Part shown: one piece after another, positions 3,621 through 26,329 of the stretch | Position numbering within the stretch: position 1 is the first letter of the stretch | Layout: every line of letters begins with the position of its first letter | From: a virus | Reading direction: 5' to 3' (one strand) | UHGV virus genome: UHGV-1366609 | Length of the DNA stretch: 29,779 nucleotides | The notes under the pieces: generated by a model | Told to the model about the DNA's origin: nothing | The model's database searches: none | The model's input: the letters and a program-made list of their open reading frames with translations, nothing else | Translations under genes and position numbers: made by a program

Positions 3621-5731
3621 CCTGCGTTAAGCTCCTGCCATTCAGCCAACTGGGCCGGGGTGATTCCATTGGGGGCGTTGATGTAGGTATCGCCCCACGA
3701 TTTACGGTTATCAACGGCGGTTTTGCTGTCGGTTTTAACCTGACTCATCAGGCCGCCGCGTGGGATGTCTGCATTAATTCGGTTCCCCGTCAGCACTGAC
3801 GGGCTGTTCAGCTTCGACGAACCTGCAGCACTGTCAGGAATGACCGCGTTTGCCGGAACGGCAGCCGCTGCCGGTGGCGAAACGGTTTTCAGGTCGATGT
3901 TGACGCCGGGGATCTTGTTTAGCTTCTCCACAATCCAGTTATAGGTAGACGCAAAGGTATTTTTGAGGACGTCAAAAAGTTTGCTGAATACCCCGCCGAT
4001 GGTTTGTGCGAACCCTTCAAAGGTGGCAAGCGGGGAAAGACCGGCAAAGAAATCAACCACCACGGCCCAGCCGTCAGTGATGGACTGCCAGACCTGCGCA
4101 AACACCTGGCCCACCTGTTCAGCGACCGACATCACCCAGGCAAAAGCCGACGTATCCATGATTGCTGTCGCAAGTTCTTCCCAGTGGGTGATGACGTACC
4201 AGACCCCCACGGCCAGAAGCGCCAGCCCGGCAATGATCAGGGTGATCGGACTCATCAGGAGTTGCATTGCCGCCCCGGCAAACATGGTCGCCGCACCGTA
4301 AACCCGCATGGCAATGGCCCCGGCCTTTAACGCGATATTCCATGCAGCAAGCGCGATGCGGCAGACGCCCGTCCACAGCGCCAGTAATTTTGACTGGATC
4401 CACAATGCAGCCAGACCGATGCGCGTCGTCAGCAGGGACGGACGCAACAGGTTGAGCGTCCATAACAGTAGTTTCCATGCGCCGCCCAGTACCTTAGCGA
4501 TTGCAGCCAGCCCCGTCATGGTGAAGCCAAAGACCCCCATCACGATATTGACCGCCGCCCCGGCCAGCCCGAATGACAACACGCCCAGGGTGATGTACCC
4601 CAGCCAGCGGGCAATATTCGGGAACATATCCAGCCAGCGGGCAAATTTTGTCCCCACGTCGGCAATACGGTTCATCAGCGGTGACAGGATAGGGATCAGC
4701 GTGTTACCAATCGCCGCGCGAATGGCAAAGAATGTCGCTTTGATACGTTCCCACGGCTCGGCCATTCGTTCGGCCATTTCCTGGGCGCGTTTCATCCCGT
4801 CATTTCGGCCCAGTTCGGTGATGCTGCGGTTTAATTTATCCTGCTGACCGTACAGCTTTTTGATAACGTCAGCACCACCACCGAACGCGGCGTCCAGCGC
4901 CTGTTGTGCCTTGACGTTTCCTTCAATGCTCTGCCCGTATTTGCTCTGAAGTTTTTGCAGAATGTCACCCATCGGCAGCATTTTTCCGGTGGCATCGACA
5001 AAGCTCATACCCAGCTTTTCAGCGGCAGCCGGGGCGCTGCGTAAAAACTGCTCGTAGATCCCGCTGGCCTCAGTACCCAGCGTGCGCGAAAGCGTACCCA
5101 GGACGGCGAACTGTTCATCCAGGCTGACGCCAAAGTCAGCACCGGCGCTTTTCGTCCCCTCGATAAGCTCCTGCATGGTCTGCATTTTCACGCCGAAGTT
5201 TTGCACCATGTACGCCGTTTTCCCTGCCAGCTCTTCGGCAAAACGTACATGGCCCAGACTGGACAACTCCGCGTTGAAGCGTGACGCCATCGCGCCGATG
5301 TATTCGCCTGCCTCTTCGCCGCTGGCCTTGACGCCTGCGGCCAGGGTATTGGCCGCGATGGTGACGCGGGGCAGGTCCATATCGGACAGGCCCGCCATTG
5401 CGCCTTTCATCGCATAGCTTGACCGGACCACATCAACGGCCCCTTTGCCGTAGCGCATACTGAATCGCATGGCTTCACCGGACAGACGCTTCAGCGCATC
5501 CTCTGCCACGCCTTTGGAACCCACTTCTGCGAGTGCGGCGTTCATCTCATACGCCGGACCCACCACGCCCGCGATGGACTGCGCCACGCCCCAGACAGCC
5601 GCCGCACCGATCCCAATTTTTGTAAAAGACGCCTGCGATTTTTCGGCAAAGCCGGACAGCGAAGACTGGGCCGTCTTTAATGGCCGCGTCAGCTTATCGA
5701 TCAGGCTCAGGGTAAAATCCAGGTGACTCAT
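3617..5731 (-). CDS. Tail tape measure protein
   Basis: 704 aa, Ala/Gly-rich with helical N-terminal half and a block of hydrophobic segments (residues about 380-520). Lies directly downstream of the frameshifted chaperone gene. Confidence 0.85.
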   Translation of the reverse strand: MSHLDFTLSLIDKLTRPLKTAQSSLSGFAEKSQASFTKIGIGAAAVWGVAQSIAGVVGPAYEMNAALAEVGSKGVAEDALKRLSGEAMRFSMRYGKGAVDVVRSSYAMKGAMAGLSDMDLPRVTIAANTLAAGVKASGEEAGEYIGAMASRFNAELSSLGHVRFAEELAGKTAYMVQNFGVKMQTMQELIEGTKSAGADFGVSLDEQFAVLGTLSRTLGTEASGIYEQFLRSAPAAAEKLGMSFVDATGKMLPMGDILQKLQSKYGQSIEGNVKAQQALDAAFGGGADVIKKLYGQQDKLNRSITELGRNDGMKRAQEMAERMAEPWERIKATFFAIRAAIGNTLIPILSPLMNRIADVGTKFARWLDMFPNIARWLGYITLGVLSFGLAGAAVNIVMGVFGFTMTGLAAIAKVLGGAWKLLLWTLNLLRPSLLTTRIGLAALWIQSKLLALWTGVCRIALAAWNIALKAGAIAMRVYGAATMFAGAAMQLLMSPITLIIAGLALLAVGVWYVITHWEELATAIMDTSAFAWVMSVAEQVGQVFAQVWQSITDGWAVVVDFFAGLSPLATFEGFAQTIGGVFSKLFDVLKNTFASTYNWIVEKLNKIPGVNIDLKTVSPPAAAAVPANAVIPDSAAGSSKLNSPSVLTGNRINADIPRGGLMSQVKTDSKTAVDNRKSWGDTYINAPNGITPAQLAEWQELNAG

Positions 5732-7316: not shown

Positions 7317-7772
7317 TCAGCCTTTCAAATCGCGAGTGTCGCGGGCTGACAGGTACGGCACGCCGTCAATCGCGACAAAGTCCGGGCTTGTCACCATGAA
7401 TTTAATTTTCTTCGTGGTTTTGCTGGCCTCGTTGGGGTTGATGTTGACGATGTCGGACAGCGTCGGAACGCAGCCAAACACCTCGATTTTTTCTTCGTCG
7501 TCCCCCGCATTGGCGTAGAACAAAAAGTCCTTTGCCGGAATGGCCCGCCAGGAACCTGCGGCGCGGGCCACGGCGGTAAACTTTTTAAAGTTCTGGGAAT
7601 CGACTTCGACTTCCACATCCGCCGAAACTGACCCTTTCGTGTGGCCGTTTGGGATGCCACGCGACTGCGCAACCGCGCTGTTATCCGTGATGGTGACGGT
7701 GGCGTTTTCGACGTGAATCATGATGGCGTCGTAGTTCACATCGAACGATCCGCCGCTGATACGTTCAGTCAT
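7317..7772 (-). CDS. Putative tail tube protein
   Basis: 151 aa ORF directly downstream of the sheath-sized gene and upstream of the chaperone/tape-measure block. No resemblance to P2 FII noticed. Confidence 0.5.
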   Translation of the reverse strand: MTERISGGSFDVNYDAIMIHVENATVTITDNSAVAQSRGIPNGHTKGSVSADVEVEVDSQNFKKFTAVARAAGSWRAIPAKDFLFYANAGDDEEKIEVFGCVPTLSDIVNINPNEASKTTKKIKFMVTSPDFVAIDGVPYLSARDTRDLKG

Positions 7773-12423: not shown

Positions 12424-13485
12424 TTAAACTAATTCACGCGGTTTTTTGTCGCCCGCTGGCGCATTACCAGGACGACGCGTTCCGTTACTTTCCATCGCTG
12501 ACAACTTGGTCATGACGGTGGTCAGTTGTTCGGACAGGTCGTTCAGCGGGTTACCGGCCTGACGCCCTGCGGAAAGCTCACGGCGGCGGCTGCGGGTACG
12601 CTGACGACGTGCCGGGGCTGCGCTGAATTTTTTCATCGCTTTTGCCAGGTTGGCTTTGGCGACGCTGAATTCTTCCGCTTTGACTTCGTCTTCCGGGTTC
12701 TCTGCAACTTCCTCCGCCAGATCTGCCACTTCGGCGGCAGCGTCTGCGATTTCGTCAGCAATGACGGCCACTTCGTCGGCGGCCTGTTCCGGCGTATCAA
12801 CTTTTTCAGCGTCACCCGCTGCGGCGTCTTTACCGCTTTTAACTAAATCCAGTAATTGCTGGATGAGGGCTTTTAACTCTTCCATTTTTTCTCCGTCGCC
12901 CTCGGTGGGCTTATCAGTGTTTGGCTCTGGCGTTGGCGTAAAATCTTTACTGGCCGAAAATAAACGCGACCAGAAAGAATCTTTTTTATCCGGTTTACTT
13001 GTCTGTAATTTTCCCAAGCTGAATGTTTCCAGACTCCCGCGCTCGGCGTCCTTTTCTTCACCGGCTAAAACGAATTTAAGTTTTTCCGTTCCCAGACTTG
13101 CCGGAATATCAGTCACGGCCAGCCCGAAAAGATATTCACGACCGCTTCCTGCAAAATCAGTGACAAACTCGGCTGACGTAAATAACTTTTGCCCCATACG
13201 GTTGGCATCAATTAAAAATTGATTCGGGATTAACTGGGCATATAACTTCGTGACGTCACCTTCCGTTTCCACTTTCAGCGCGTCCACTTCACCCAGGTTG
13301 CAGGTAAATTCACGCTCGCCGATATCGTATTGCGGGTGGTGCGGCCAAATCATGGCGGTGTAGGTTTTGCGGGAGTAGGTTTCTGCCGCATCAATCAACC
13401 ATTGCGGTTCAATGGTGCGACCGTCCACAGCCTGTCCAGATGTGGCAATACATAGCCAATCCGTGCGGTAATGAGATTGCGGCAT
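12424..13485 (-). CDS. O: Capsid scaffolding protein, P2 gpO-like
   Basis: 353 aa. N-terminal blocks AVDGRTIEPQWLIDAAETY and YLFGLAVTDIPASLGTEKLKF match P2 gpO motifs as recalled; acidic coiled-coil-like C-terminal half. Confidence 0.8.
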   Translation of the reverse strand: MPQSHYRTDWLCIATSGQAVDGRTIEPQWLIDAAETYSRKTYTAMIWPHHPQYDIGEREFTCNLGEVDALKVETEGDVTKLYAQLIPNQFLIDANRMGQKLFTSAEFVTDFAGSGREYLFGLAVTDIPASLGTEKLKFVLAGEEKDAERGSLETFSLGKLQTSKPDKKDSFWSRLFSASKDFTPTPEPNTDKPTEGDGEKMEELKALIQQLLDLVKSGKDAAAGDAEKVDTPEQAADEVAVIADEIADAAAEVADLAEEVAENPEDEVKAEEFSVAKANLAKAMKKFSAAPARRQRTRSRRRELSAGRQAGNPLNDLSEQLTTVMTKLSAMESNGTRRPGNAPAGDKKPRELV

Positions 13486-13662: not shown

Positions 13663-15474
13663 ATGGCTAAATATTCCGATGAATTAAAAGAAGCGGCCCG
13701 CACGCTTTATATAAAAAGCTGGTCGCCGAAAGATATTGCGCAGGAACTGAATATTCCACCGCGTACAATTTACCACTGGGCTGACGTCGGGAAGTGGGCA
13801 TCACTGCTGCCTGTCGAATCGGTGGAAAATGTCATCGCCCGCCGTATCGACCAGCTCACCCGCCGCGAGAAAAAAACATCGCTGGAACTGGAGGAACTGC
13901 GCGATCTGATTGCTCACCATGTGAAACTCATGGCGCAGCGCAACAAGCACGCCGAAAAGCTGGCAGAAATTCAGGCCCAGAAAGCGGCTTATGATGGTGA
14001 AGGGTACTGCCTCAGCAGCGCAGGCGGGGAACCAGGGGAAAGAAAGCGCCGGTATAAGAAAAACGACGTTTCCGGTATTACAGCGGAAATGCTCGACACC
14101 TGGGCGCGGGAACATCTCTTCGAGTACCAGTTGCACTGTCGCGAACATAAAGGCGAAGACTGGCGCTTCATTCTGAAAAGCCGACAGGTCGGCATGACCT
14201 ATTATTTCGCCTGGGAGGCATTCGAAGATGCTGTCATTACCGGCGATAACCAGGTCTTTTTCTCTGCAAGCCGCTCCCAGTCTGAAATCTTCCGTGAATA
14301 CATCGTCCAGATCGCCCAGAACCATTTCGACGTGACGCTGACGGGTAAAAATATCCGCCTCAGCAACGGCGCAATACTGCGCTTTTTGTCCACGAACGCC
14401 AGCACCGCGCAGGGCTTTAACGGCCACCTGTATGGCGATGAGGTTTTCTGGATCCCGAAATTCACGCGCCTGCACGAAGTTGCCAGCGCAATGGCAACGC
14501 ATAACAAATACCGAACGACCTACTTTTCGACGCCCAGCGCGAAAACGCACCAGGCTTACCCGGTATGGACTGGCGAAGCCTGGCGCGGGGACGACCCGAA
14601 ACGCAAAGGTGTGAAGTTCCCGAACGACAGCGAAATGCGCCAGGGTATTCTTTGCCCGGACCAGATCTGGCGCTACATCATCACGATGGAAGACGCTATC
14701 GAAGGTGGCCTCGGTGCGCTTGTCGATATTGAACGGCTGCGCAACAAATACAGCCCGACCGCGTTCGCCATGCTCTACATGTGCCAGTTTGTTGACAGTA
14801 AGGACGCGGTGTTCAAGTTCTCCGCGCTTGTCGGCTGCGAAGTGGACCGGGCCACATGGGGCGACTTTGATCTGACCGCTGCGCGGCCCTTCGGCAATCG
14901 CGAAGTATGGGCAGGCTTTGACCCGTCACGATCCGGCGACAACTCCACCTTTGTTTTAATCGCGCCCCCCATAGAGGACGGCGAGCGCTTCCGCGTGCTG
15001 GCCGTCTGGCAATGGCAGGGCTTTAACTTCAGTTGGCAGGCCGACCAGATAAAGCAACTTATGCGCCGCTTTAACATCACTTACATCGGGATCGATACAA
15101 CCGGCATTGGTAAGGGCGTTTATGACCTGGTCAGCAAGTTTGCACCGCGCGAAGCCACACCCATTCTTTACAGCGTCGAAAGCAAAAACCGTCTGGTAAT
15201 GAAGATGATCGACGTTGTCGAGCGTAAACGCATCGAATGGGCAAAAGATGCCGTAGACGAAACGAACAAAGAGCGCGTCGAAATTCCGGCCAGCTTTATG
15301 GCTATCCGGCGCACGACAACCAACAGCGGCAACGCGCTGACGTTTGTTGCCGAACGTTCAGACGCGACCGGCCATGCAGATGTTTTCTTCGCTATCTCGC
15401 ACGCCGTAATTAACGAACCTATCGATCACGAATATGACCGCCCATCGGGCTGGTACTTTGGGAAAGCAGCATGA
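13663..15474 (+). CDS. P: Terminase large (ATPase) subunit, P2 gpP-like
   Basis: 603 aa, divergent from O as in P2; stop overlaps the portal start (ATGA). Confidence 0.85.
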   Translation: MAKYSDELKEAARTLYIKSWSPKDIAQELNIPPRTIYHWADVGKWASLLPVESVENVIARRIDQLTRREKKTSLELEELRDLIAHHVKLMAQRNKHAEKLAEIQAQKAAYDGEGYCLSSAGGEPGERKRRYKKNDVSGITAEMLDTWAREHLFEYQLHCREHKGEDWRFILKSRQVGMTYYFAWEAFEDAVITGDNQVFFSASRSQSEIFREYIVQIAQNHFDVTLTGKNIRLSNGAILRFLSTNASTAQGFNGHLYGDEVFWIPKFTRLHEVASAMATHNKYRTTYFSTPSAKTHQAYPVWTGEAWRGDDPKRKGVKFPNDSEMRQGILCPDQIWRYIITMEDAIEGGLGALVDIERLRNKYSPTAFAMLYMCQFVDSKDAVFKFSALVGCEVDRATWGDFDLTAARPFGNREVWAGFDPSRSGDNSTFVLIAPPIEDGERFRVLAVWQWQGFNFSWQADQIKQLMRRFNITYIGIDTTGIGKGVYDLVSKFAPREATPILYSVESKNRLVMKMIDVVERKRIEWAKDAVDETNKERVEIPASFMAIRRTTTNSGNALTFVAERSDATGHADVFFAISHAVINEPIDHEYDRPSGWYFGKAA

Positions 15475-16532
15475 CAAAGAAACAGCGTAATAATAAAAAA
15501 TTCAGGTCCATGACCGGCAGCAAGGTTGAAACCTTCACGCCAGGGCGCGGAAGCGTGATCACATTTGGCGAACCCGAACCCATCCTTACGACCGGCACTG
15601 ATTATCACAATATCTGGTATGACAATGAATATGACCACTGGCGACTCCCGATTGATCGCCTGGCGCTGGCCCAGTTGCCGAACCTTAACGGCCAGCACGG
15701 TGGGGTACTGTATGCGCGGCGCAATATGGTAGCAGGTGGCTACATCGGCGGCGGCCTGACGCCTGATCAGGTCGAACAGGCTGTCTTTGATTACCTGCTG
15801 TTTGGTGACGTTGCTATCCTGAAAATTCGTAACGTATTCGGGGAAGTGATCGACCTGCTGCCGCTGCCGTCACTGTATCTGCGCTGCCGGAAAGACGGCT
15901 CTTTTGCTGTTCTGCAGGAAGGGCCGGCGCTTATCTATGACCCGGAAGACATCGTCTTCTTTAAAATGTACGACCCGCGCCAGCAGGTTTACGGCCTGCC
16001 GGACTATATCGGCGGGATTCATTCGGCCTTACTTAACAGCGAAGCAACCATCTTCCGACGCCGCTATTACAACAACGGGGCGCATATGGGCTTTATCCTC
16101 TATACCAGCGATCCAAACCTCACGCTGGAAATGGAGAACGAGATTAAAGATAAAATTGCTCAGTCAAAAGGCCTGGGCAACTTCCGCAATATGTTTATCA
16201 ACATCCCCAAAGGCGACCCGGACGGGGTCAAAATCTTGCCTGTGGGTGAAGTGAGCGCGAAAGATGAATTCGCCAGCATTAAGGGAATCACCGCGCAGGA
16301 TATTTTTACCGCGCACCGCTTCCCCGCAGGGCTTGCGGGCATCATCCCGACCAACGGCGCGATAATGGGCGACCCTGAAAAGGCCCGCGCGACCTATCGG
16401 AAAGATGAAGTTATCCCGTTGCAGCGCAAACTAATGCAGGGCGTGAACAACGACCCGGAGATCCCGCCGCACCTGCACCTGAAATTTGAGATTGAAACAC
16501 CGGTAAACAGCGCCGAAAAGGGCGAAAAATGA
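15471..16532 (+). CDS. Q: Portal protein, P2 gpQ-like
   Basis: 353 aa, immediately downstream of and coupled to the terminase large subunit; size and position as P2 gpQ. Confidence 0.85.
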   Translation: MTKKQRNNKKFRSMTGSKVETFTPGRGSVITFGEPEPILTTGTDYHNIWYDNEYDHWRLPIDRLALAQLPNLNGQHGGVLYARRNMVAGGYIGGGLTPDQVEQAVFDYLLFGDVAILKIRNVFGEVIDLLPLPSLYLRCRKDGSFAVLQEGPALIYDPEDIVFFKMYDPRQQVYGLPDYIGGIHSALLNSEATIFRRRYYNNGAHMGFILYTSDPNLTLEMENEIKDKIAQSKGLGNFRNMFINIPKGDPDGVKILPVGEVSAKDEFASIKGITAQDIFTAHRFPAGLAGIIPTNGAIMGDPEKARATYRKDEVIPLQRKLMQGVNNDPEIPPHLHLKFEIETPVNSAEKGEK

Positions 16533-16855
16533 ACGAGATTAAGTTAAAATCATCCCTATTGTTAGCAATGGCGTGCGGGATGGTGAACATGCGAGTTTTT
16601 AAAATTAAATGTCCTGAATGCGGCTCACCGGCCATCATTCGCAAATCTGACTGGAAAGACAAAAAACTGGCTGATTTATACTGCGCCTGCACGGAAGTTG
16701 AATGCGGCCACACCTTTGTTTTTAACGCCCAGTTTTCACATACCCTCAGCCCCAGCGGGCTGACCGGCAACAAGCTGGTTAAATTCCTGATTGACCGACT
16801 CAAGCCGGAAGAACGTCAATTCGCGCTGGACCTGCTCAACGGCCAGACGGCATAA
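16529..16855 (+). CDS. ogr: Ogr/Delta-family zinc-finger late transcription activator
   Basis: CPEC-x22-C-x4-C-GHTF matches the P2 Ogr pattern CPLC-x22-C-x4-C-SATF; downstream SPSG echoes Ogr PLPSG. True start may be the internal Met (MRVFKIKCPEC, about 16589). Confidence 0.7.
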   Translation: MNEIKLKSSLLLAMACGMVNMRVFKIKCPECGSPAIIRKSDWKDKKLADLYCACTEVECGHTFVFNAQFSHTLSPSGLTGNKLVKFLIDRLKPEERQFALDLLNGQTA

Positions 16856-16860
16856 ACGAA

Positions 16861-16886
16861 GCCCGCATAAAGCGGGCTTTTTTATT
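16861..16886 (+). terminator. Rho-independent terminator, probably bidirectional, between convergent ogr-like and methyltransferase genes
   Basis: GCCCGC-ATAAA-GCGGGC hairpin followed by TTTTTTATT, 5 nt after the ogr-like stop. Confidence 0.7.
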
Positions 16887-17601
16887 CGACATCACAAAGC
16901 GCGGTCATGATCGCCAGCCGTTCCGCTGGCGGCAAGGCGGCGAACTTATCCCGCCAGCGTGCCGCTTTACGTTTTATCCTGGCCCGGTCGTTGTAGTCCT
17001 TTCCGGCAAAGGTGTGGGAATAGGCTTTCCCTTCCTCGTAATTCATCCAGATTTTTTCCGTTCGCACGCCGCCCCGCGTCATGGCCTGAAACTCTCGCGT
17101 TCGCCAGCCGGTCAGCGTGCTGTCATAAAGCTGCGACGGGTAGCCAGACAAAATGACACTCACATTTTCCGGCAGTGACATCAGGCAACGTAAAAGGCGC
17201 TCATGATCGGCGACGGTGTATTCATGGCGGTAACGGGCGTGACTGGTGCGCGTTTCCGGCATATATGGCGGATCACAATAAATCAGCACCTTACCCAGCT
17301 TTTCAAAAGACGTAACCCCATCCAGCACGCTAGGCCTTTTGAGACTTTCAAGAAAATACACGGCATCACCATGAAAAAAATCAATGCGTGGTGGCTTCAA
17401 TCCCTTAACCTCCCAACGCTGCATTGTTTGCCGACGTGCTGTTTCATCAAGATCCGCACCGTAATTCCGCTTCGCAGGCGGCTTGAAAAACATCACCGCA
17501 CCGCTGCCCAGATGCGTTTCAATGTAGGTATCATGCGGGGGCATTTCAGCAATGATTTTCTGATAGACCCCGCTGGCCGCTTTACTTCCCAGATAACTCA
17601 T
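16882..17601 (-). CDS. N6-adenine DNA methyltransferase (phage-type Dam-like), orphan
   Basis: 239 aa. HLGSGAV (AdoMet-binding, motif I-like) and LIYCDPPY (motif IV DPPY). No adjacent nuclease-like gene. Confidence 0.6.
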   Translation of the reverse strand: MSYLGSKAASGVYQKIIAEMPPHDTYIETHLGSGAVMFFKPPAKRNYGADLDETARRQTMQRWEVKGLKPPRIDFFHGDAVYFLESLKRPSVLDGVTSFEKLGKVLIYCDPPYMPETRTSHARYRHEYTVADHERLLRCLMSLPENVSVILSGYPSQLYDSTLTGWRTREFQAMTRGGVRTEKIWMNYEEGKAYSHTFAGKDYNDRARIKRKAARWRDKFAALPPAERLAIMTALCDVE

Positions 17602-17640
17602 ACTTTCCCGCCCTCAGCTGGCACGGTCATTCCTGACCTG

Positions 17641-17729
17641 CAGCACTGTTAAAAATGACCGTCCTCGATACAAATGGCCAGCACTGTCAAAAGTGATAGT
17701 GTCTGCCGGAATACACTGTCAGAAATAAC
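17641..17729. repeat. Three direct repeats CAGCACTGTyAAAArTGA-like in the A/methyltransferase intergenic region
   Basis: CAGCACTGTTAAAAATGAC at 17641..17659, CAGCACTGTCAAAAGTGAT at 17679..17697, ACACTGTCAGAAATAAC at 17713..17729; copy 1 is flanked by the inverted pair CACGGTCAT (17621..17629) and ATGACCGTC (17655..17663). Confidence 0.5.
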
Positions 17730-17817
17730 AGCACGGTACCCGCGGGCTCTTTGCCGCCCGCACCCGCAGAATCACGCCAGCCGACGCAACCAGTTGCGAC
17801 GGCCAGCGCGATTGCAT

Positions 17818-20427
17818 TCATTCTTTTGGGTGGCGACCTTCCGCACCCGCCAGCATTTTTTGATACTCCCCGACCGGATCAAACCGCAGGCGCGTGGCAT
17901 CTATACCGTGGTTATCCCGCAGACGTTCCCATAATTTATTCATCGTCCGTGACTCGTCGGGTAATTGACGCGTTATTAACTGGCCGTCAGCACTGGCCCG
18001 ATAAACTTTGCCGCCAATCTCCAGACAGCTCCCCATTAACAGCGAAACGGCCTGAATCTCTGAAATCTCAACCGAACACAACACCGCATCAGCCAGCAGA
18101 CTGGCAACCGCAGGGGCAAGCGCTGCCCGTCTGGCTTTTTCTGCCGCTGATCTGGCCTCGGTTTTTTCGACGGCAGAACGCCACGCGACATCTAATTCGC
18201 TTCCTGGCTCATAAGGTGATCCGCTTTTCTGCCTTTTGAATGGTGTTTCACGTAGTCGCCGCATCAATTTGCGCCGCGTCTGCTGGTCCATGTTTTCAAA
18301 ATCGACGATTTCCTCTTCTGATTCTTCTGTCATCCCCTCCACATCAGGCGAAAAATCGGTGATTTTTTCGTCTTCCGTAGAGTTATTGACAGAACTCCAA
18401 GCGTCGCCGGTTGGCGACGGCAAAAGGTCAACCCCCAAACCGGGGCCTTTTTTGGCCCCGGTGGCGGCTTTGGATTTGGCGCGGATTTTCCACTTAACCA
18501 GGCGGGTGCAAATACGGGAGGCATCCCCCAGACGCGGCGACCAGACCCCGAATACCTTTTCGGGGATCTCACAATAAGCATTCATTTCATCAGCAGGCTG
18601 ATAGGCCAGACGAACGACATAGTTTTCACGCGGGATCAAAACACCGCCCTGGCGGATGATGTAGGTAGCAAAGCACCCAACATCGGCAGCAGCGCAAACC
18701 GCATCCATCGCAGGATCCATAAGCAGCGGTGCGCCGCGCTTGAAGGTATTGTCAATTTTCTGGCGGGCCGTGATCTGATTGCTCAGTTTGCGCAGCTCGC
18801 GGTAAACCGATATAGGCGGTTGTCCGATGGGCTGAAACTGGCGGATACGGTGAAGCGATGCCCAAGCCATTGCAAACTTGGCTGTTTCATTCAGGGGCTT
18901 GCCGCTTTCGTCGTCCAGTTCACCGGCCAGCGCGTGGCCGTCGATATTCTTTGAAATGTATTTGGCTATGTATGCCGTTGCTGACCCTTTTCGCGGGTCC
19001 ATTTTTTTTGACTTGAAGCGAGCGCCGGTATTGCGGCCCAGCTCGTCGCGGTCTTCCGCAATGAAGTAAGCGCGAAGGATCGCAACCGTGGCTTTAACTT
19101 GCTCCTTTGGCATAAACAGCAATGCGTGCCAGTGTGGCGTCCCATCGTGATGCGGCTCGGCGACGCGGAAGCCATAAGGGCGCAAATCTTCGCGTTTCAG
19201 TTTGGCGGTTGCCCGGTTCCATACACGGCATAAATAGCGCTGCGCCTGGGCGACGGTGGAATGATTCCATTTGGCGTTATGGTGGCCGGACGCAATATTA
19301 CTGTGATATTTCGACGGGCAAGTAATGGTCAGGAAGATGCCAACATCGCCGCGACTTTGGGCGACAAGTTCAACCCCAGCCATTCGGGCCATAAGCTCAT
19401 GGCGACGAATAGCCGGGTTAGACGTGGATTTATTAATCATTTCCTCGAGCGACGAAACGTTGCCGTCTTCGTCTACCAGTTCATGACTTTTGAAAAAATC
19501 CCGGTTTTTACGGCGCTGTTCCTGCCACTCGATCAGGCTGGAAGCGCTAACGTAGGCGTGCGCTTTTTTATTTACCGCGCCAACAGCACGCAGCTGGTTC
19601 TCGCGCCAGTCACAACGCAGGCGCCAGATTTTGCGCCCCCACCAGTCAGGCGAAGCCATACGCAAAATGGCCGTGCATATGCGCTCGCGTTCCCACGGCG
19701 CATACCATGCAGGCGGCACAATACGAAGCGCCAGCATTTCGCGGCCCAGGTGGCAATAAAGCCAGTCCAGTTCTTCGACGTTCATGTCGGAAACATTCCG
19801 CCCCAGGGCTTCGCATTCCGTCCCAAGCATTTCAGCCATGCGGCTGGCGATCTCATTAGCGGCGCTTAGTGCCTCCCGCTTTGTGAAATCAGCCAGTCGT
19901 TGCCAGCGCCCGAACCAGTACGCGGCCAGTTCGCCGGTGAGATCAGGCGAAACACCTTGCCTTGTGCGCACAACATCAAGACGCAGCAATGATTTTTTCA
20001 CGGTCCCCATAAGAAAATCATTGGTGTGTCTGGCTTCACGGTTGGCCCGTAACCATTCAATTTTTTTGCGCCAGACTTCACGAATGAAGAACGGCTCTGA
20101 TAATAAACGCGCTTCGACACCTTCCGGCGTATTGGCCCAGGCTGCCGCCGTAGCTTTGGCGGCTTCCATTTCCTGCCGGATTATATTTTGATGGGCGGCC
20201 AGTGGCAGGCCGCACGGTTCGTACCTGTCCAGCGCCTGGATAAGCGCGTTACGGTCGCGAACATCGTCGGGGTTGTAACCGGCGCGTTTGAAGATGTGAT
20301 CGATGTGTTTTTTAACGGCAGGATGATGCGCCACCGCCCCGGCAAGCGGGGCGATTTTTTTCGGTTCGTAGGTGTAAAGGCCAACAGCTGGGCGCGGCGC
20401 GTTCCAGGGCCATGCGAAATCAGTCAT
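17818..20427 (-). CDS. A: Rolling-circle replication initiator, P2 gpA-like
   Basis: About 869 aa from ATG 20427..20425 (the track ORF begins at an upstream TTG). HUH motif TPHWHALLF and paired tyrosines YIAKY (Y-x3-Y), as in P2 A. Confidence 0.85.
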   Translation of the reverse strand: MTDFAWPWNAPRPAVGLYTYEPKKIAPLAGAVAHHPAVKKHIDHIFKRAGYNPDDVRDRNALIQALDRYEPCGLPLAAHQNIIRQEMEAAKATAAAWANTPEGVEARLLSEPFFIREVWRKKIEWLRANREARHTNDFLMGTVKKSLLRLDVVRTRQGVSPDLTGELAAYWFGRWQRLADFTKREALSAANEIASRMAEMLGTECEALGRNVSDMNVEELDWLYCHLGREMLALRIVPPAWYAPWERERICTAILRMASPDWWGRKIWRLRCDWRENQLRAVGAVNKKAHAYVSASSLIEWQEQRRKNRDFFKSHELVDEDGNVSSLEEMINKSTSNPAIRRHELMARMAGVELVAQSRGDVGIFLTITCPSKYHSNIASGHHNAKWNHSTVAQAQRYLCRVWNRATAKLKREDLRPYGFRVAEPHHDGTPHWHALLFMPKEQVKATVAILRAYFIAEDRDELGRNTGARFKSKKMDPRKGSATAYIAKYISKNIDGHALAGELDDESGKPLNETAKFAMAWASLHRIRQFQPIGQPPISVYRELRKLSNQITARQKIDNTFKRGAPLLMDPAMDAVCAAADVGCFATYIIRQGGVLIPRENYVVRLAYQPADEMNAYCEIPEKVFGVWSPRLGDASRICTRLVKWKIRAKSKAATGAKKGPGLGVDLLPSPTGDAWSSVNNSTEDEKITDFSPDVEGMTEESEEEIVDFENMDQQTRRKLMRRLRETPFKRQKSGSPYEPGSELDVAWRSAVEKTEARSAAEKARRAALAPAVASLLADAVLCSVEISEIQAVSLLMGSCLEIGGKVYRASADGQLITRQLPDESRTMNKLWERLRDNHGIDATRLRFDPVGEYQKMLAGAEGRHPKE

Positions 20428-20435
20428 GGCGGCCC

Positions 20436-20702
20436 TCAAAACGGCAATTCATCGTCAGTGCAATCTGGATCAATGGCGAGCGTAACCGGGCTACCGCACT
20501 TAAAACTTAGCGCCTCTGAGAAGGTGGAAAAAGCAGCGGTATCGCGAACACAAACGCCGTCATAAAAAGCGTCGAACTCAACCAACCAGATGTCACCCAT
20601 TTGCCAACGGTCATGGATACGCTCAACGACCATCATCGCGGTGACATCTCCGTCCGTAGTGGCCGGATCAAAGCCGATGAATTCCCTTGCGGTCAGGCTC
20701 AT
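20436..20702 (-). CDS. Small highly acidic early protein with SSB-tip-like C-terminus (function unknown)
   Basis: 88 aa, about 17 Asp/Glu versus 5 Arg/Lys; C-terminus ...DPDCTDDELPF confirmed codon by codon. Its stop sits 8 nt before the A start. Confidence 0.5.
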   Translation of the reverse strand: MSLTAREFIGFDPATTDGDVTAMMVVERIHDRWQMGDIWLVEFDAFYDGVCVRDTAAFSTFSEALSFKCGSPVTLAIDPDCTDDELPF

Positions 20703-20926: not shown

Positions 20927-21381
20927 CAGAAAGGTACTCCGCCGTCAAAATCACCGACTGGCGACGTCTTGAATGTAAAAGCCGTTCCTGGGCGAAATTT
21001 GCGGGCGTTCTTGAATGATCGAAAAGTGCGCGAGTGCGGGAAGCTATCCCCCGTCATGACATCCATTGCGATTACATCAACCCGAACGGAACCACGCTCC
21101 CGGCGAGTGATAGAGATAACCTTCTCAACTACTGCAAAAACAGAGGTGTCGTGAGGGGCATAAGGTGCGACCGGCGAGACTTGTTGCACTGCCGGACTAT
21201 GTTTCTCAATTAGTGGATCAAGTATCGCGTTAAAGGAAATTAGCAATGTATTAGCCACGTCAGGCCCAGCCAAAACGCCCGCTAACGTCGCATGGGCAAG
21301 CGCAATGGTTTTAGCTTCGTTAAGCGCAGCCAGCACTCCGCGTGTAAATTCGGATTGAGTTGCATCGATACGGGTTGCCAT
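20926..21381 (-). CDS. Hypothetical early protein ending in an SSB-tip-like tail
   Basis: 151 aa; C-terminus ...SPVGDFDGGVPF confirmed from the nucleotides. Coupled to the Dam stop upstream and the 75-aa start downstream. Confidence 0.5.
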   Translation of the reverse strand: MATRIDATQSEFTRGVLAALNEAKTIALAHATLAGVLAGPDVANTLLISFNAILDPLIEKHSPAVQQVSPVAPYAPHDTSVFAVVEKVISITRRERGSVRVDVIAMDVMTGDSFPHSRTFRSFKNARKFRPGTAFTFKTSPVGDFDGGVPF

Positions 21382-22346
21382 TAAAAAGCCTCCACGCCAT
21401 TGGCCGCAGCCGATGCCAGCATTTCGTTGTAGGTCGCGTCCCCCATTACCGGGCCGCAGTCAGGACAACAGCCACCACCGGCACGACCGCAGCCGCTGCA
21501 CACTTTGAGGACGCCGATCACCTCTTTGGCCTTTTCGCGGTTTTTAGTGCTGGCGCTTACCGAACGCTGGACGGCAATTTCCTGGAAGCGGAAGTCTTTG
21601 TAGATCTCGCGAGTCAGCGGGGTGTCGCTGTTAGAAATCACGACAGACGCGCCAGTCTCTCGGTTTGCTTTCAGAAGGGCGGCAACAAGCTGGCGGTGTT
21701 GCTTCTTACCAAATGGGCCAGTGTGGTACTGGGTAAAATTGGCGGTGTCACTTGCAGGCAGGTACGGCGGATCACAGTAAATAACGCTATCAGGGAAAAG
21801 AGGGGCGTTGATGGCGTCTACGAAGTCACTACAAAGAAATAAAGTGCAGGTATCGCGGGCCTTTTCAGAGAACAAGCGGATCTCCACTTCTGGCAAATAC
21901 TGCGTTTCTTTATCCTTCCCCTTTCCGTAAGGGGTGTTGTACTCACCTTTCAGGTTGTAGCGCACAACACCGTTGTAGCCGTGGCGGTTCAGGTACAAAA
22001 AGAACGCGGCGCGGGCGACACTAGTAAAATGGTGGCGCAGGCGGCGACCTTTCGGATGATTGAACATGTCGCGAAGTTTTGCGTAATTTGCGCTGGTATT
22101 GCGGTTCTTAAACAAGTCGCGAGACAGGCTTATCAGTTCGTCAGGGGTGCTTCTGGCAACACGATAAAGGTTAATCAAATCGGGGTTTATATCGCTCAGA
22201 ATGTAGCGACGATAATCTGTATTCAGGAAGACGGAAGCGCCCCCCACAAACGGCTCAACCAGGCATTCACCTTTCGGCAGAATCGGCAGTAATTCAGGCA
22301 TAACGCGGCCTTTACCACCGGGCCATTTAACGAGAGATCGAATCAT
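21381..22346 (-). CDS. dam: Dam-family DNA adenine methyltransferase (likely GATC-specific) with C-terminal Cys-rich extension
   Basis: N-terminus VKWPGGK...LPKGECLVEPFVGGASVFLNTDYRRYILSDINPDLINLY is near-collinear with E. coli Dam as I recall it; motif IV VIYCDPPY. Extra C-terminal CSGCGRAGGGCCPDCG. Confidence 0.85.
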   Translation of the reverse strand: MIRSLVKWPGGKGRVMPELLPILPKGECLVEPFVGGASVFLNTDYRRYILSDINPDLINLYRVARSTPDELISLSRDLFKNRNTSANYAKLRDMFNHPKGRRLRHHFTSVARAAFFLYLNRHGYNGVVRYNLKGEYNTPYGKGKDKETQYLPEVEIRLFSEKARDTCTLFLCSDFVDAINAPLFPDSVIYCDPPYLPASDTANFTQYHTGPFGKKQHRQLVAALLKANRETGASVVISNSDTPLTREIYKDFRFQEIAVQRSVSASTKNREKAKEVIGVLKVCSGCGRAGGGCCPDCGPVMGDATYNEMLASAAANGVEAF

Positions 22347-25820: not shown

Positions 25821-26013
25821 TCCTTCCTCGCATTATTTTGCAAAAACTATAGCTGCATCATTTCTCCCCAAAGCCTTGCCGCGCAAGGCTTCACGCATTT
25901 TTCAACGAAACTTTCCAGCCTACCGCCGACCACATTTGATCGTGACGGAATCTAAAACGATCCTTTTAAAAACATCATGTTATCCAGTCGGTTAGCGACT
26001 GGCGGCGCGGTGA

Positions 26014-26125
26014 CTTTTGCAAAGTGCTGCAAATCTTTGCGCAGCGTGCAAACGCCCGCAGGATGCAAAAGCCCAGCAGCGGCGCAGGCTGGCGGGGGGC
26101 TTTGCACAAAATTTCTTTTGCAAAA
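26014..26125. repeat. Array of TGCAAA half-sites including two palindromes TTTTGCAAA(G/A) about 100 bp apart, in a 510-bp non-coding gap
   Basis: CTTTTGCAAAG at 26014..26024 and CTTTTGCAAAA at 26115..26125, plus TGCAAA at about 26028, 26048, 26064 and TTTGCACAAAA at 26101. Confidence 0.4.
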
Positions 26126-26329
26126 TTTTTATGATCCAAACTGCGCAGGCGGGTGCGGTGTAGCGCCGTTTCCGTCCTGGATCCGCTTCCGTCTGCCTGC
26201 TGTCGCTTGCGCTGTGGGTCGCTGTTGAACGAACGAAAGAAAGGCCGCACGGTGGCGACCTTTAATGTTTGCGCCTGCTGTGGCGCGTTCTGTGGTGTCT
26301 GGTGAGGTGTGCGGTTATACCGCTTTTTG

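Follow-up and report, generated by a model that had tools for sequence, protein, structure and literature searches.

The 216-bp gap between replication gene A and a methyltransferase gene of the virus genome UHGV-1366609 contains one copy of a lineage-specific, dispersed, palindromic intergenic junction element that belongs to a sub-lineage of P2-like phages. This identification is well supported. The stretch analysed, hereafter the window, is 29,779 nucleotides long, and the gap occupies positions 17602-17817. In our assessment the element is not a cohesive-end (cos) site, not a replication origin and not specific to the methyltransferase gene. What it does is more doubtful. A role resembling that of the repetitive extragenic palindromes (REPs) and bacterial interspersed mosaic elements (BIMEs) of host chromosomes, or of the promoter-early stem-loops (PeSLs) of T4-like phages, is the reading that we favour, tentatively and at less than even odds. 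The whole explanation, identity and mechanism taken together, falls a little short of an even prospect.

Architecture of the element

We aligned the 130 bp upstream of the methyltransferase gene (71 distinct sequences) and 82 distinct instances of the element from several genomic contexts (alignment A2). Both alignments yielded one element, with the consensus nATTCCGnCAnnCACnGTCAnTTnTGACAGTGCTGGCCAT(n0-4)CATCGAGnACCGTCATTTTTAACnGTGCTGCAG on the methyltransferase-sense strand, which is the minus strand of the window. Its building blocks are units of the imperfect palindrome GCACnGTCA-N4-TGACnGTGC, of which there are two to four (two in the consensus), together with the invariant linker GGCCAT-n0-4-ATCGAG. 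The units usually have a 6-bp palindrome behind them, and their right arms are better conserved than the left arms. The window core aligns gap-free within its units to the 81 other instances of A2. The parts of the element and the features around it in the gap are as follows.

17634-17713, minus strand: element core, made up of unit A, linker, unit B and CTGCAG (nhmmer profile from 59 distinct relatives, E=1.6e-21)
17679-17702, minus strand: unit A, ACACTATCA-CTTT-TGACAGTGCTG, whose right arm is copy 2 of the direct repeat described below
17664-17682, minus strand: linker, GCTGGCCAT-ttgt-ATCGAG, with GGCC and AT.GA invariant in 82/82 instances of A2
17638-17663, minus strand: unit B, GACGGTCA-TTTT-TAACAGTG, then CTGCAG; its right arm is copy 1 of the direct repeat
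17652-17662, minus strand: 5' arm of the long stem, ACGGTCATTTT, which is the unit B left arm and also pairs in the minimum-free-energy fold
17623-17633, minus strand: 3' arm of the long stem, GGAATGACCGT, containing the partner of the inverted pair and ending 8 nt before the GAGG of the ribosome-binding region
17713-17734, minus strand: distal unit U1, GTGCTGTTA-TTTC-TGACAGTGT, overlapping copy 3 of the direct repeat
17704-17712, minus strand: conserved block ATTCCGGCA, found before unit A in most instances (A2 consensus)
17735-17740: GGTACC, the sole copy in the 29.8-kb window
17742-17761, minus strand: GC-rich hairpin GCGGGC-GGCAAAGA-GCCCGC, after gene A
17770-17813, minus strand: imperfect hairpin with 21-nt arms directly 3' of the gene A stop codon (inverted repeat I1, 81% complementary)
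17599-17615, minus strand: purine-rich ribosome-binding region and start codon, GAGGGCGGGAAAGT-ATG, containing a 13-mer that had been likened to cos

The first-pass annotation of this DNA had described three related 18-mers in the gap, and these are indeed present, at slightly different coordinates: copy 1, CAGCACTGTTAAAAATGA, at 17641-17658; copy 2, CAGCACTGTCAAAAGTGA, at 17679-17696 (89% identical); and copy 3, ATACACTGTCAGAAATAA, at 17711-17728 (67% identical). The first of the two spacings given for them, 38 bp, is right, but the second is 32 bp rather than about 33. They correspond to the right arms of units B, A and the distal U1, read on the plus strand. An inverted pair was likewise found to flank copy 1, but it is 9 nt long instead of 8 (ACGGTCATT at 17623-17631 with AATGACCGT at 17654-17662), and it is formed by the unit B left arm and one further copy of the right arm. 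When up to three mismatches were allowed, the degenerate 18-mer matched three times in the window, twice in the gap and once inside the tape-measure gene at 3826. Dinucleotide shuffles give a chance expectation of 0.06 matches, and 0/100 shuffles reached three. We take the repeats and the inverted pair to be conserved cis-elements and not noise, and they probably lie in the 5' leader of the methyltransferase gene.

The match in the tape-measure gene belongs to a longer but incomplete similarity with the element's 3' half (window 3819-3869, minus strand; nhmmer E=2e-4; CAGCACTGTCAGGAATGA at 3826-3843), which is also present in Salmonella phage SI7 and is probably a coding-sequence coincidence of GTG CTG codons.

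Palindromes of 6 bp are strongly depleted in the window as a whole (241 observed, 471 expected from base composition), suggesting restriction avoidance. Five are packed into 17615-17745, including the sole GGTACC and the sole TGGCCA of the window, the latter in the linker, and most of them arise where a right arm abuts a left arm. Outside the core the gap is less constant among relatives. The GC-rich hairpin is followed by TTTTT in Salmonella phage SW5, where it is terminator-like, whereas the window copy has no T-run; of the region 17599-17615 relatives keep just the purine-rich character. Possible hidden small open reading frames (ORFs) on either strand, encoding MTVLD... and MAST... peptides, are conserved neither in length nor in frame or start codon.

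Distribution among phages and hosts

Homologues of the methyltransferase, 65-98% identical, were found between genes A and Q in 80 viral contigs, and the element core is present once, immediately upstream of the methyltransferase gene, in 80/80 of these IMG/VR loci. In most of them gene A is just ~35% identical to that of the window. The repeats keep the same arrangement upstream of the homologues in 80/80 viral loci, which bears out the conservation among relatives on which the first-pass proposal had depended. Carriers comprise Irrigatiovirus, Senquatrovirus SEN4/5, Novemvirus, Klebsiella 3LV2017-type phages and related Enterobacterales prophages; the element was not found in P2.

Among complete E. 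coli genomes the element is present in 35/5426, at no more than four places per genome (48 chromosomal and 2 plasmid). Species-representative genomes with the element belong to Citrobacter, Klebsiella, Kluyvera, Kosakonia, Enterobacter and Raoultella, and further to Yokenella, Trabulsiella, Phytobacter, Pseudocitrobacter, Erwinia and Izhakiella. Every bacterial context examined was a P2-like prophage, and the element is essentially confined to prophage or integrase-linked DNA. It is not a host repeat. A search of Rfam with the whole window gave no match at gathering thresholds and noise alone (E>=2) in the gap. We found no description of the element in Rousset 2022, the 2026 Nucleic Acids Research hotspot paper, the iLund4u preprint or the P2V survey, a search that did not extend to Nilsson et al. 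2004 (TO-region recombination).

Some unusual copies were also observed. In locus L083 the core is duplicated in tandem upstream of the methyltransferase gene (3812-3968), with two GGCCAT..ATCGAG linkers 76 bp apart. Loci L218, L227 and L231, from Kluyvera, a 'Bacillota' metagenome-assembled genome and Izhakiella, have near-identical copies close to a SEN5-type integrase gene, ~80-150 bp from its 3' end; the Bacillota assignment looks like mis-binning. These three copies are preceded by an AT-rich stretch with many GTAAC(C) repeats and retain a remnant of the methyltransferase ribosome-binding region without the gene. Locus L125 (IMGVR_UViG_3300014839_000004) has ~12 hairpin units resembling CATCGCCnTTTCTGGCGATG at ~4860-5300, beside an integrase gene and a gene for an AlpA-like helix-turn-helix protein, and many of these units are followed by a 6-bp palindrome (CTGCAG, CGATCG, GATATC, TGGCCA or GGATCC). 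We set this array aside as a different, integrase and AlpA mobile element with a related repeat architecture.

Copies at several junctions and coincident homology breakpoints

A genome carries the element at up to three intergenic junctions, those that follow gene A, the endolysin gene and the tail-fibre genes. In SEN5, where all copies share one strand, the endolysin gene is followed by the copy at 7529-7591 and the tail-fibre assembly gene by the copy at 15006-15080; the copy at 31255-31329 precedes the methyltransferase gene. A prophage of E. coli TOK-001 has the same three sites. Further sites in other contigs are the I-H junction, the interval from tfaG to the sheath gene, and the flank of an integrase gene at its 3' end. 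The element lies within 0-25 nt of the upstream stop codon in the clearest cases and 13-45 nt before the downstream start in most contexts. At all contexts the copies are on the strand of gene A and the flanking genes, except for two that lie beside inverted tail-fibre DNA (L233 and L212). The copy of L212, the ECONIH5 prophage, is divergent and inverted (~24945, minus strand) and has as neighbours tail gene U on one side and, on the other, a second tail-fibre assembly gene in the opposite orientation, which suggests that a tail-fibre segment has been inverted there.

The ECONIH5 prophage also has the post-endolysin copy and has no such methyltransferase gene. Because a copy is carried without that gene, and others are found at other junctions, an operator specific to the methyltransferase is ruled out. 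The copies are orthologous by position across phages and are therefore old and stable, not recently mobile.

In the comparisons made here, homology breakpoints between related phages coincide with the element. The window and SW5 are near-identical from the methyltransferase gene to the unit A right arm, and their homology is lost inside unit A. Distal unit U1 is missing in SW5 and SI7, where a 66-amino-acid ORF takes its place. This ORF (4165-4365 in SW5, locus L002) lies between gene A and the element, has no Pfam or PHROG match and has its stop codon in the unit A loop. The lysis-cassette junction is variable among the prophages compared (TOK-001, ECONIH5, 730V1 and SEN5): flanks that are 93-99% identical enclose non-homologous endolysins (M15 peptidase, lysozyme, TIGR02594), and in every pair homology is regained at TCAnTTTTAACnGTGCTGGCC, the unit A loop and right arm. 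Unrelated upstream cassettes meet the conserved backbone at the 5' edge of the element. In L145 and L113, morons on the reverse strand adjoin the upstream side of the post-tail-fibre copy. P2 has two classical hotspots, and these are the A-to-Q and tail-fibre (G-to-FI) sites. The integrase-side site has been proposed as a third in the iLund4u preprint (PMC9122126; preprint 10.1101/2024.10.15.618418).

Such a distribution could also be that of a selfish or relict palindromic element, akin to a miniature inverted-repeat transposable element or a REP, that occupies permissive intergenic sites without a function for the phage, its link with hotspots being a by-product. The inverted outer arms of the whole element, its location at positions that tolerate morons, the tandem duplication of the core in L083 and its dispensability, with absence from P2 and from most E. 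coli prophages, are all consistent with this. We nevertheless consider it unlikely. Copies at the same position are orthologous across genera, and ~35 positions vary little or not at all between paralogous copies, which points to purifying selection. The near confinement to prophage and integrase-linked DNA, at four places or fewer in each of 35/5426 E. coli genomes, is not expected of such an element, and neither target-site duplications nor a cognate transposase were seen.

Folding potential and possible mechanisms

If the element acts as a REP/BIME- or PeSL-like junction, it would be transcribed along with the neighbouring genes, and its arms would fold into stem-loops forming a boundary between the cistrons on either side. 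In the window a 9-12-bp stem would end 8 nt before the ribosome-binding site of the methyltransferase gene and could set mRNA stability or translation. As the same ~80 bp are common to several junctions and many phages, the shared sequence may also serve as a homology patch for the exchange of accessory cassettes.

The long stem, with 12 pairs, is 94.8% paired in 21 diverse methyltransferase-proximal copies (alignment A3), where it contains one covarying pair (CG 11, GC 5) and 22 G-U cells. Together with the near-constant orientation and the positions after stop codons and before start codons, this stem favours a role as a single strand. Several results weigh against the mechanism. RNAalifold returned no consensus structure over the 82 instances; the local unit hairpins are 77% paired, compared with 75.5% in column shuffles; their mismatches are G-T in 161 cases and A-C in 183, without strand bias; and the folding energy of the window copy is ordinary (z = -0.85 for the sense RNA). 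Neither a promoter nor a T-tract terminator was detected inside the element, unlike in PeSLs. Copies within one genome are ~70% identical, poor substrates for RecA-type recombination, and the coincidence of breakpoints can arise simply from a conserved element beside unconserved neighbours. Since it is absent from P2 and present in 35/5426 E. coli genomes, the element is also dispensable for P2-like biology generally. Long-range alternative pairings (A-right with B-left, A-left with B-right) were rejected, as they showed no covariation and did no better than shuffles.

The main rival is an array of operators in duplex DNA, in which each ~22-bp dyad unit would bind a dimer of a phage- or host-encoded protein and the linker a second factor, and the array would regulate or insulate the gene that follows, in the window the methyltransferase gene. 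In favour of this, the units have dyad symmetry with the non-conserved 'n' in each half, the spacing between units varies by 0-4 bp, and the two arms of a unit co-change slightly more than in shuffles (66 against 47±6 cells). The missing strand bias of the mismatches, the lack of an RNA consensus fold and the ordinary folding energy also suit this model. It has no candidate protein, however, and conservation of the element extends over phages with differing regulators. The post-tail-fibre copy has a terminator alone downstream, and hence nothing to regulate; the constant strand orientation and the G-U-rich long stem would be unexplained, as would right arms that are much better conserved than left arms. 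We regard the operator array as a minority possibility that still deserves attention.

Alternatively, the element could be a signal in single-stranded DNA, with hairpins and CTG triplets acting as priming or primosome sites for the complementary strand, on the strand presumed to be displaced after nicking by the gene A protein (gpA). CTG is the recognition triplet of DnaG, and the complementary-strand origin of phage G4 consists of hairpins next to CTG. Here each right arm ends in GTGCTG, and the copies are on the gene-A sense strand, bar the two beside inverted tail-fibre DNA. P2-like phages replicate by rolling circle, the window has an origin homologue inside gene A, and the equal numbers of G-T and A-C mismatches suit DNA hairpins better than RNA hairpins. 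On the other side, P2 and 186-type phages share this replication mode without the element, P2 makes its lagging strand through gpB, DnaB and DnaG (P2 record annotation) and needs no special sites, and the hairpins are weak as DNA. A priming role therefore seems improbable to us.

By analogy with integron attC sites and substrates of HUH nucleases, the element might instead be a dedicated site for exchanging cassettes at the variable hotspots of P2-like phages, recombined as a folded hairpin; the processing enzyme could come from the phage (the HUH nickase gpA is one example) or from the host. This is a long shot; if true, it would account for different phages having unrelated genes attached at one and the same nucleotide.

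Replication origin and regulator sites

The iteron-like character that the first-pass annotation gave to the repeats did not survive closer comparison. Their spacing is irregular, with right-arm starts 32, 38 and 22 bp apart, the motif is the arm of a palindrome, and the homologue of the P2-type origin lies inside gene A. There, at ~18385-18425 on the minus strand, the P2 nick-site homologue GGAGTYCTGTCAATAAC is preceded by an inverted repeat; the nick region reads GTCGCCAACCGGCGAC (the inverted repeat) and then GCTTGGAGTTCTGTCAATAAC, and its P2 counterpart is GCGCCTCGGAGTCCTGTCAATAAC. This region is the probable rolling-circle origin. The units are not relatives of the gpA nick region, with which they share a CTGTCAA 7-mer alone, and on the opposite strand. 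Like the iterons of plasmids and phages, the element offers several direct copies of a 17-19-bp motif in non-coding DNA beside a replication gene. Unlike them, it has irregular spacing, its motifs are palindrome arms, replication of the P2 type starts at a nick inside gene A, and copies occur far from that gene (8-24 kb away in SEN5). Replication iterons were rejected on these grounds.

The suggestion that the repeats are regulator-binding sites for a methyltransferase promoter is unproven: the element has no sigma-70-like promoter, recurs at other junctions and is present in a prophage without the gene. No promoter-like sigma-70 site (-35 and -10 hexamers 16-18 bp apart) was found in 16400-18100, where the TTGACA-like hexamers of the right arms have no -10 partner. 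By eye, none of the sigma-54, sigma-32 and sigma-E promoters or the IHF, Fis, CRP, FNR, matS, ops, C-box and Pho-box sites fits the invariant positions. An Ogr-dependent late promoter was also rejected. The units have nothing in common with the activator sites annotated in P2, and no conserved TGT-N12-ACA, the activator motif expected ~55 bp upstream of the start in such promoters, was seen; the element profile has no match in the O-P intergenic region of the window.

Phage 186 has a LexA-controlled promoter, p95, at the syntenic place downstream of gene A (record annotation), and U1 could by comparison be a LexA box that represses a methyltransferase promoter under SOS control, in the manner of the p95-tum arrangement of 186. 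The U1 core (17716-17731) is the sole CTGT-N8-ACAG in the window, and CACTGTCAGAAATAACAGCA at 17714-17733 is the best LexA-like 20-mer of the window, at 11.3 bits. This score is marginal and falls short of all 18 E. coli SOS boxes used for comparison (12.5-26.7 bits). Among relatives the perfect core is limited to the window and L023, other units having CCG or TAG in place of CAG, and U1 is missing from SW5 and SI7. The resemblance to p95 thus consists of the position directly after gene A and the CTGT-N8-ACAG core; it does not extend to an acceptable -10 hexamer or to a tum homologue, of which the window has none. An SOS-controlled promoter is very improbable. The methyltransferase is also not a homologue of 186 Orf97, which is an unrelated protein.

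Packaging site

The first-pass annotation had further noted a G-rich element with a partial resemblance to the P2/186 cohesive end, and had proposed a packaging or cos-adjacent region. The G-rich sequence is present as the 13-mer GAGGGCGGGAAAG (minus strand, 17603-17615), but the evidence counts strongly against its being cos. It runs directly into the methyltransferase ATG (17601-17599) and overlaps the ribosome-binding region. Against the P2/186 cohesive end it agrees at 13/19 positions, and ~12 equally good matches are found elsewhere in the window, and alignment with the P2 and 186 cos junctions gave similarity at chance level. The 19-nt cohesive end GGCG(A/T)GGCGGGGAAAGCA(C/T) itself has no match with three or fewer mismatches anywhere in the window. 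Three Irrigatiovirus-like relatives with terminases 90-93% identical (L009, L020 and L023) have AAGGGGAAAAATG, CAGGAGATTTACATG and GAGGACAGAAAAACATG, respectively, at the position of the 13-mer. In ~20 relatives that keep the upstream element, a genuine GGCGAGGCGGGGG cos is found ~150 bp downstream of the methyltransferase gene.

The cos of this phage likely lies elsewhere. We used as an empirical criterion, devised here, the densest cluster of TGCA(A/T)(A/T), which in P2 (33401-33550) and in SEN5 (33351-33540) adjoins the annotated termini on their left. In the window the densest cluster is at 25971-26160, with 8 sites in 150 bp against a mean of ~0.4; the gap holds 2 sites. This cluster lies beside a run of six G residues (26094-26099) and next to GGCTGGCGGGGGGCTTTGCAC, and the orthologous region of SI7 behaves alike. 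Since the cos flanks of P2 and SEN5 are both located in this way, we predict that cos is at ~26.0-26.16 kb, in the stretch from the integrase side to the last tail gene. The record of SW5 starts at the equivalent of window position 26156.

The notion that the gap is nonetheless the packaging site, with the 13-mer as cohesive end and the repeats as cosB-like terminase-binding sites, draws on real similarities. With gene A on one side and the portal gene on the other, the gap is placed like the cos of P2, 186 and P4; its purine- or G-rich block has the strand orientation seen in P2 and is adjoined by an inverted repeat. Three repeats beside a G-rich block are superficially like cosB and cosN of lambda, and a direct match (three or fewer mismatches to a P2-type cos) did not locate cos in the window. 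Unlike the cohesive ends of those phages, the block is an unmatched (13/19) and unconserved sequence that overlaps a start codon. The chance-level match, the downstream cos of the relatives that keep the element, its recurrence at two or three other sites per genome and the cluster with its G run outside the gap all oppose this reading, to which we give hardly any credence.

Genome setting

The window is a circularly permuted genome of a P2-like phage of the genus Irrigatiovirus. Salmonella phages SI7, SW5 and SW3 are ~93% identical to it over 84% of a 25-kb query (window 1-25000), and their records have differing, apparently arbitrary, start points. The genes around the element are arranged as follows.

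12424-13485, minus strand: scaffold gene O
13663-15474, plus strand: large terminase gene P
15471-16532, plus strand: portal gene Q
16529-16855, plus strand: Ogr/Delta zinc-finger gene (108 amino acids, domain at residues 27-73), overlapping the Q stop codon
16858-16880: bidirectional terminator
16882-17601, minus strand: gene of a divergent Dam/D12-type methyltransferase (239 amino acids), downstream of the element
17602-17817: the 216-bp gap, between the gene A stop and the methyltransferase start
17818-20439, minus strand: replication gene A, rolling-circle nickase (Phage_GPA, E=2.7e-107), upstream of the gap

The Ogr/Delta gene appears to be co-transcribed with P and Q. In P2 the ogr gene is located after gene D, and the SI7 annotation of the Ogr/Delta gene is shorter, at 91 amino acids. 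The methyltransferase was assigned through PHROG 56 (E=2.4e-36) and Pfam D12 (27 bits), with TIGR00571 below its cut-off and weak matches to Dam structures in the PDB. A second methyltransferase gene in the window, at 21381-22346, encodes a full-length Dam.

Discussion

The nearest parallels to the element come from two well-described classes of palindromic repeats. In T4-like phages, PeSLs are points at which unrelated sequences have been exchanged at the borders of variable genes (PMC2839356, PMC4122927). Like them, the element is a short conserved intergenic stem-loop repeat dispersed at variable-gene borders, and the homology breakpoints of the endolysin swaps and of the SW5 66-amino-acid ORF fall at it, as they do at PeSLs. 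PeSLs are, however, composites of a terminator and an early promoter, present in many copies per genome, whereas here neither component was detected, a genome has 1-3 copies, and recombination is inferred. With REPs and BIMEs the element shares imperfect palindromic units of ~20-40 bp in alternating orientation, conserved linkers, and a location in extragenic, presumably transcribed DNA after stop codons or between cistrons. It differs in being essentially confined to a sub-lineage of P2-like prophages, at four places or fewer per genome, in contrast to hundreds of host-chromosomal copies, in its unrelated sequence and near-constant orientation, and in having no linked transposase of the REP-associated tyrosine transposase type.

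A more distant likeness is to short dispersed motifs of mycobacteriophages. The stoperators of L5 and the start-associated sequences (SAS) and extended start-associated sequences (ESAS) of cluster K phages are 13-17 bp long and occur in tens of copies, and stoperators bind the immunity repressor. They too are dispersed in small intergenic gaps, in fixed orientation to transcription and near gene starts; they have no sequence relation to the present element, which is longer and composite.

For annotation, it follows that the region should not be labelled cos or ori, that the leader of the methyltransferase gene is probably structured, and that the likely Irrigatiovirus cos is ~8.4 kb away. The element is lineage-restricted, and its function is read from comparative sequence alone. 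Anti-phage and counter-defence genes have a major reservoir in P2-like prophages, where they are concentrated at the A-to-Q and G-to-FI sites and near int. According to a 2026 survey, the mechanism by which genes are swapped at these hotspots is unknown, transposable elements are almost absent, and homologous recombination would need flanking homology (PMC13586616). Because that survey leaves the mechanism of exchange open, the element is a useful and testable lead: in one sub-lineage, the presence of the same ~80 bp at those hotspot junctions and at the lysis-cassette junction makes it a candidate boundary or exchange sequence.

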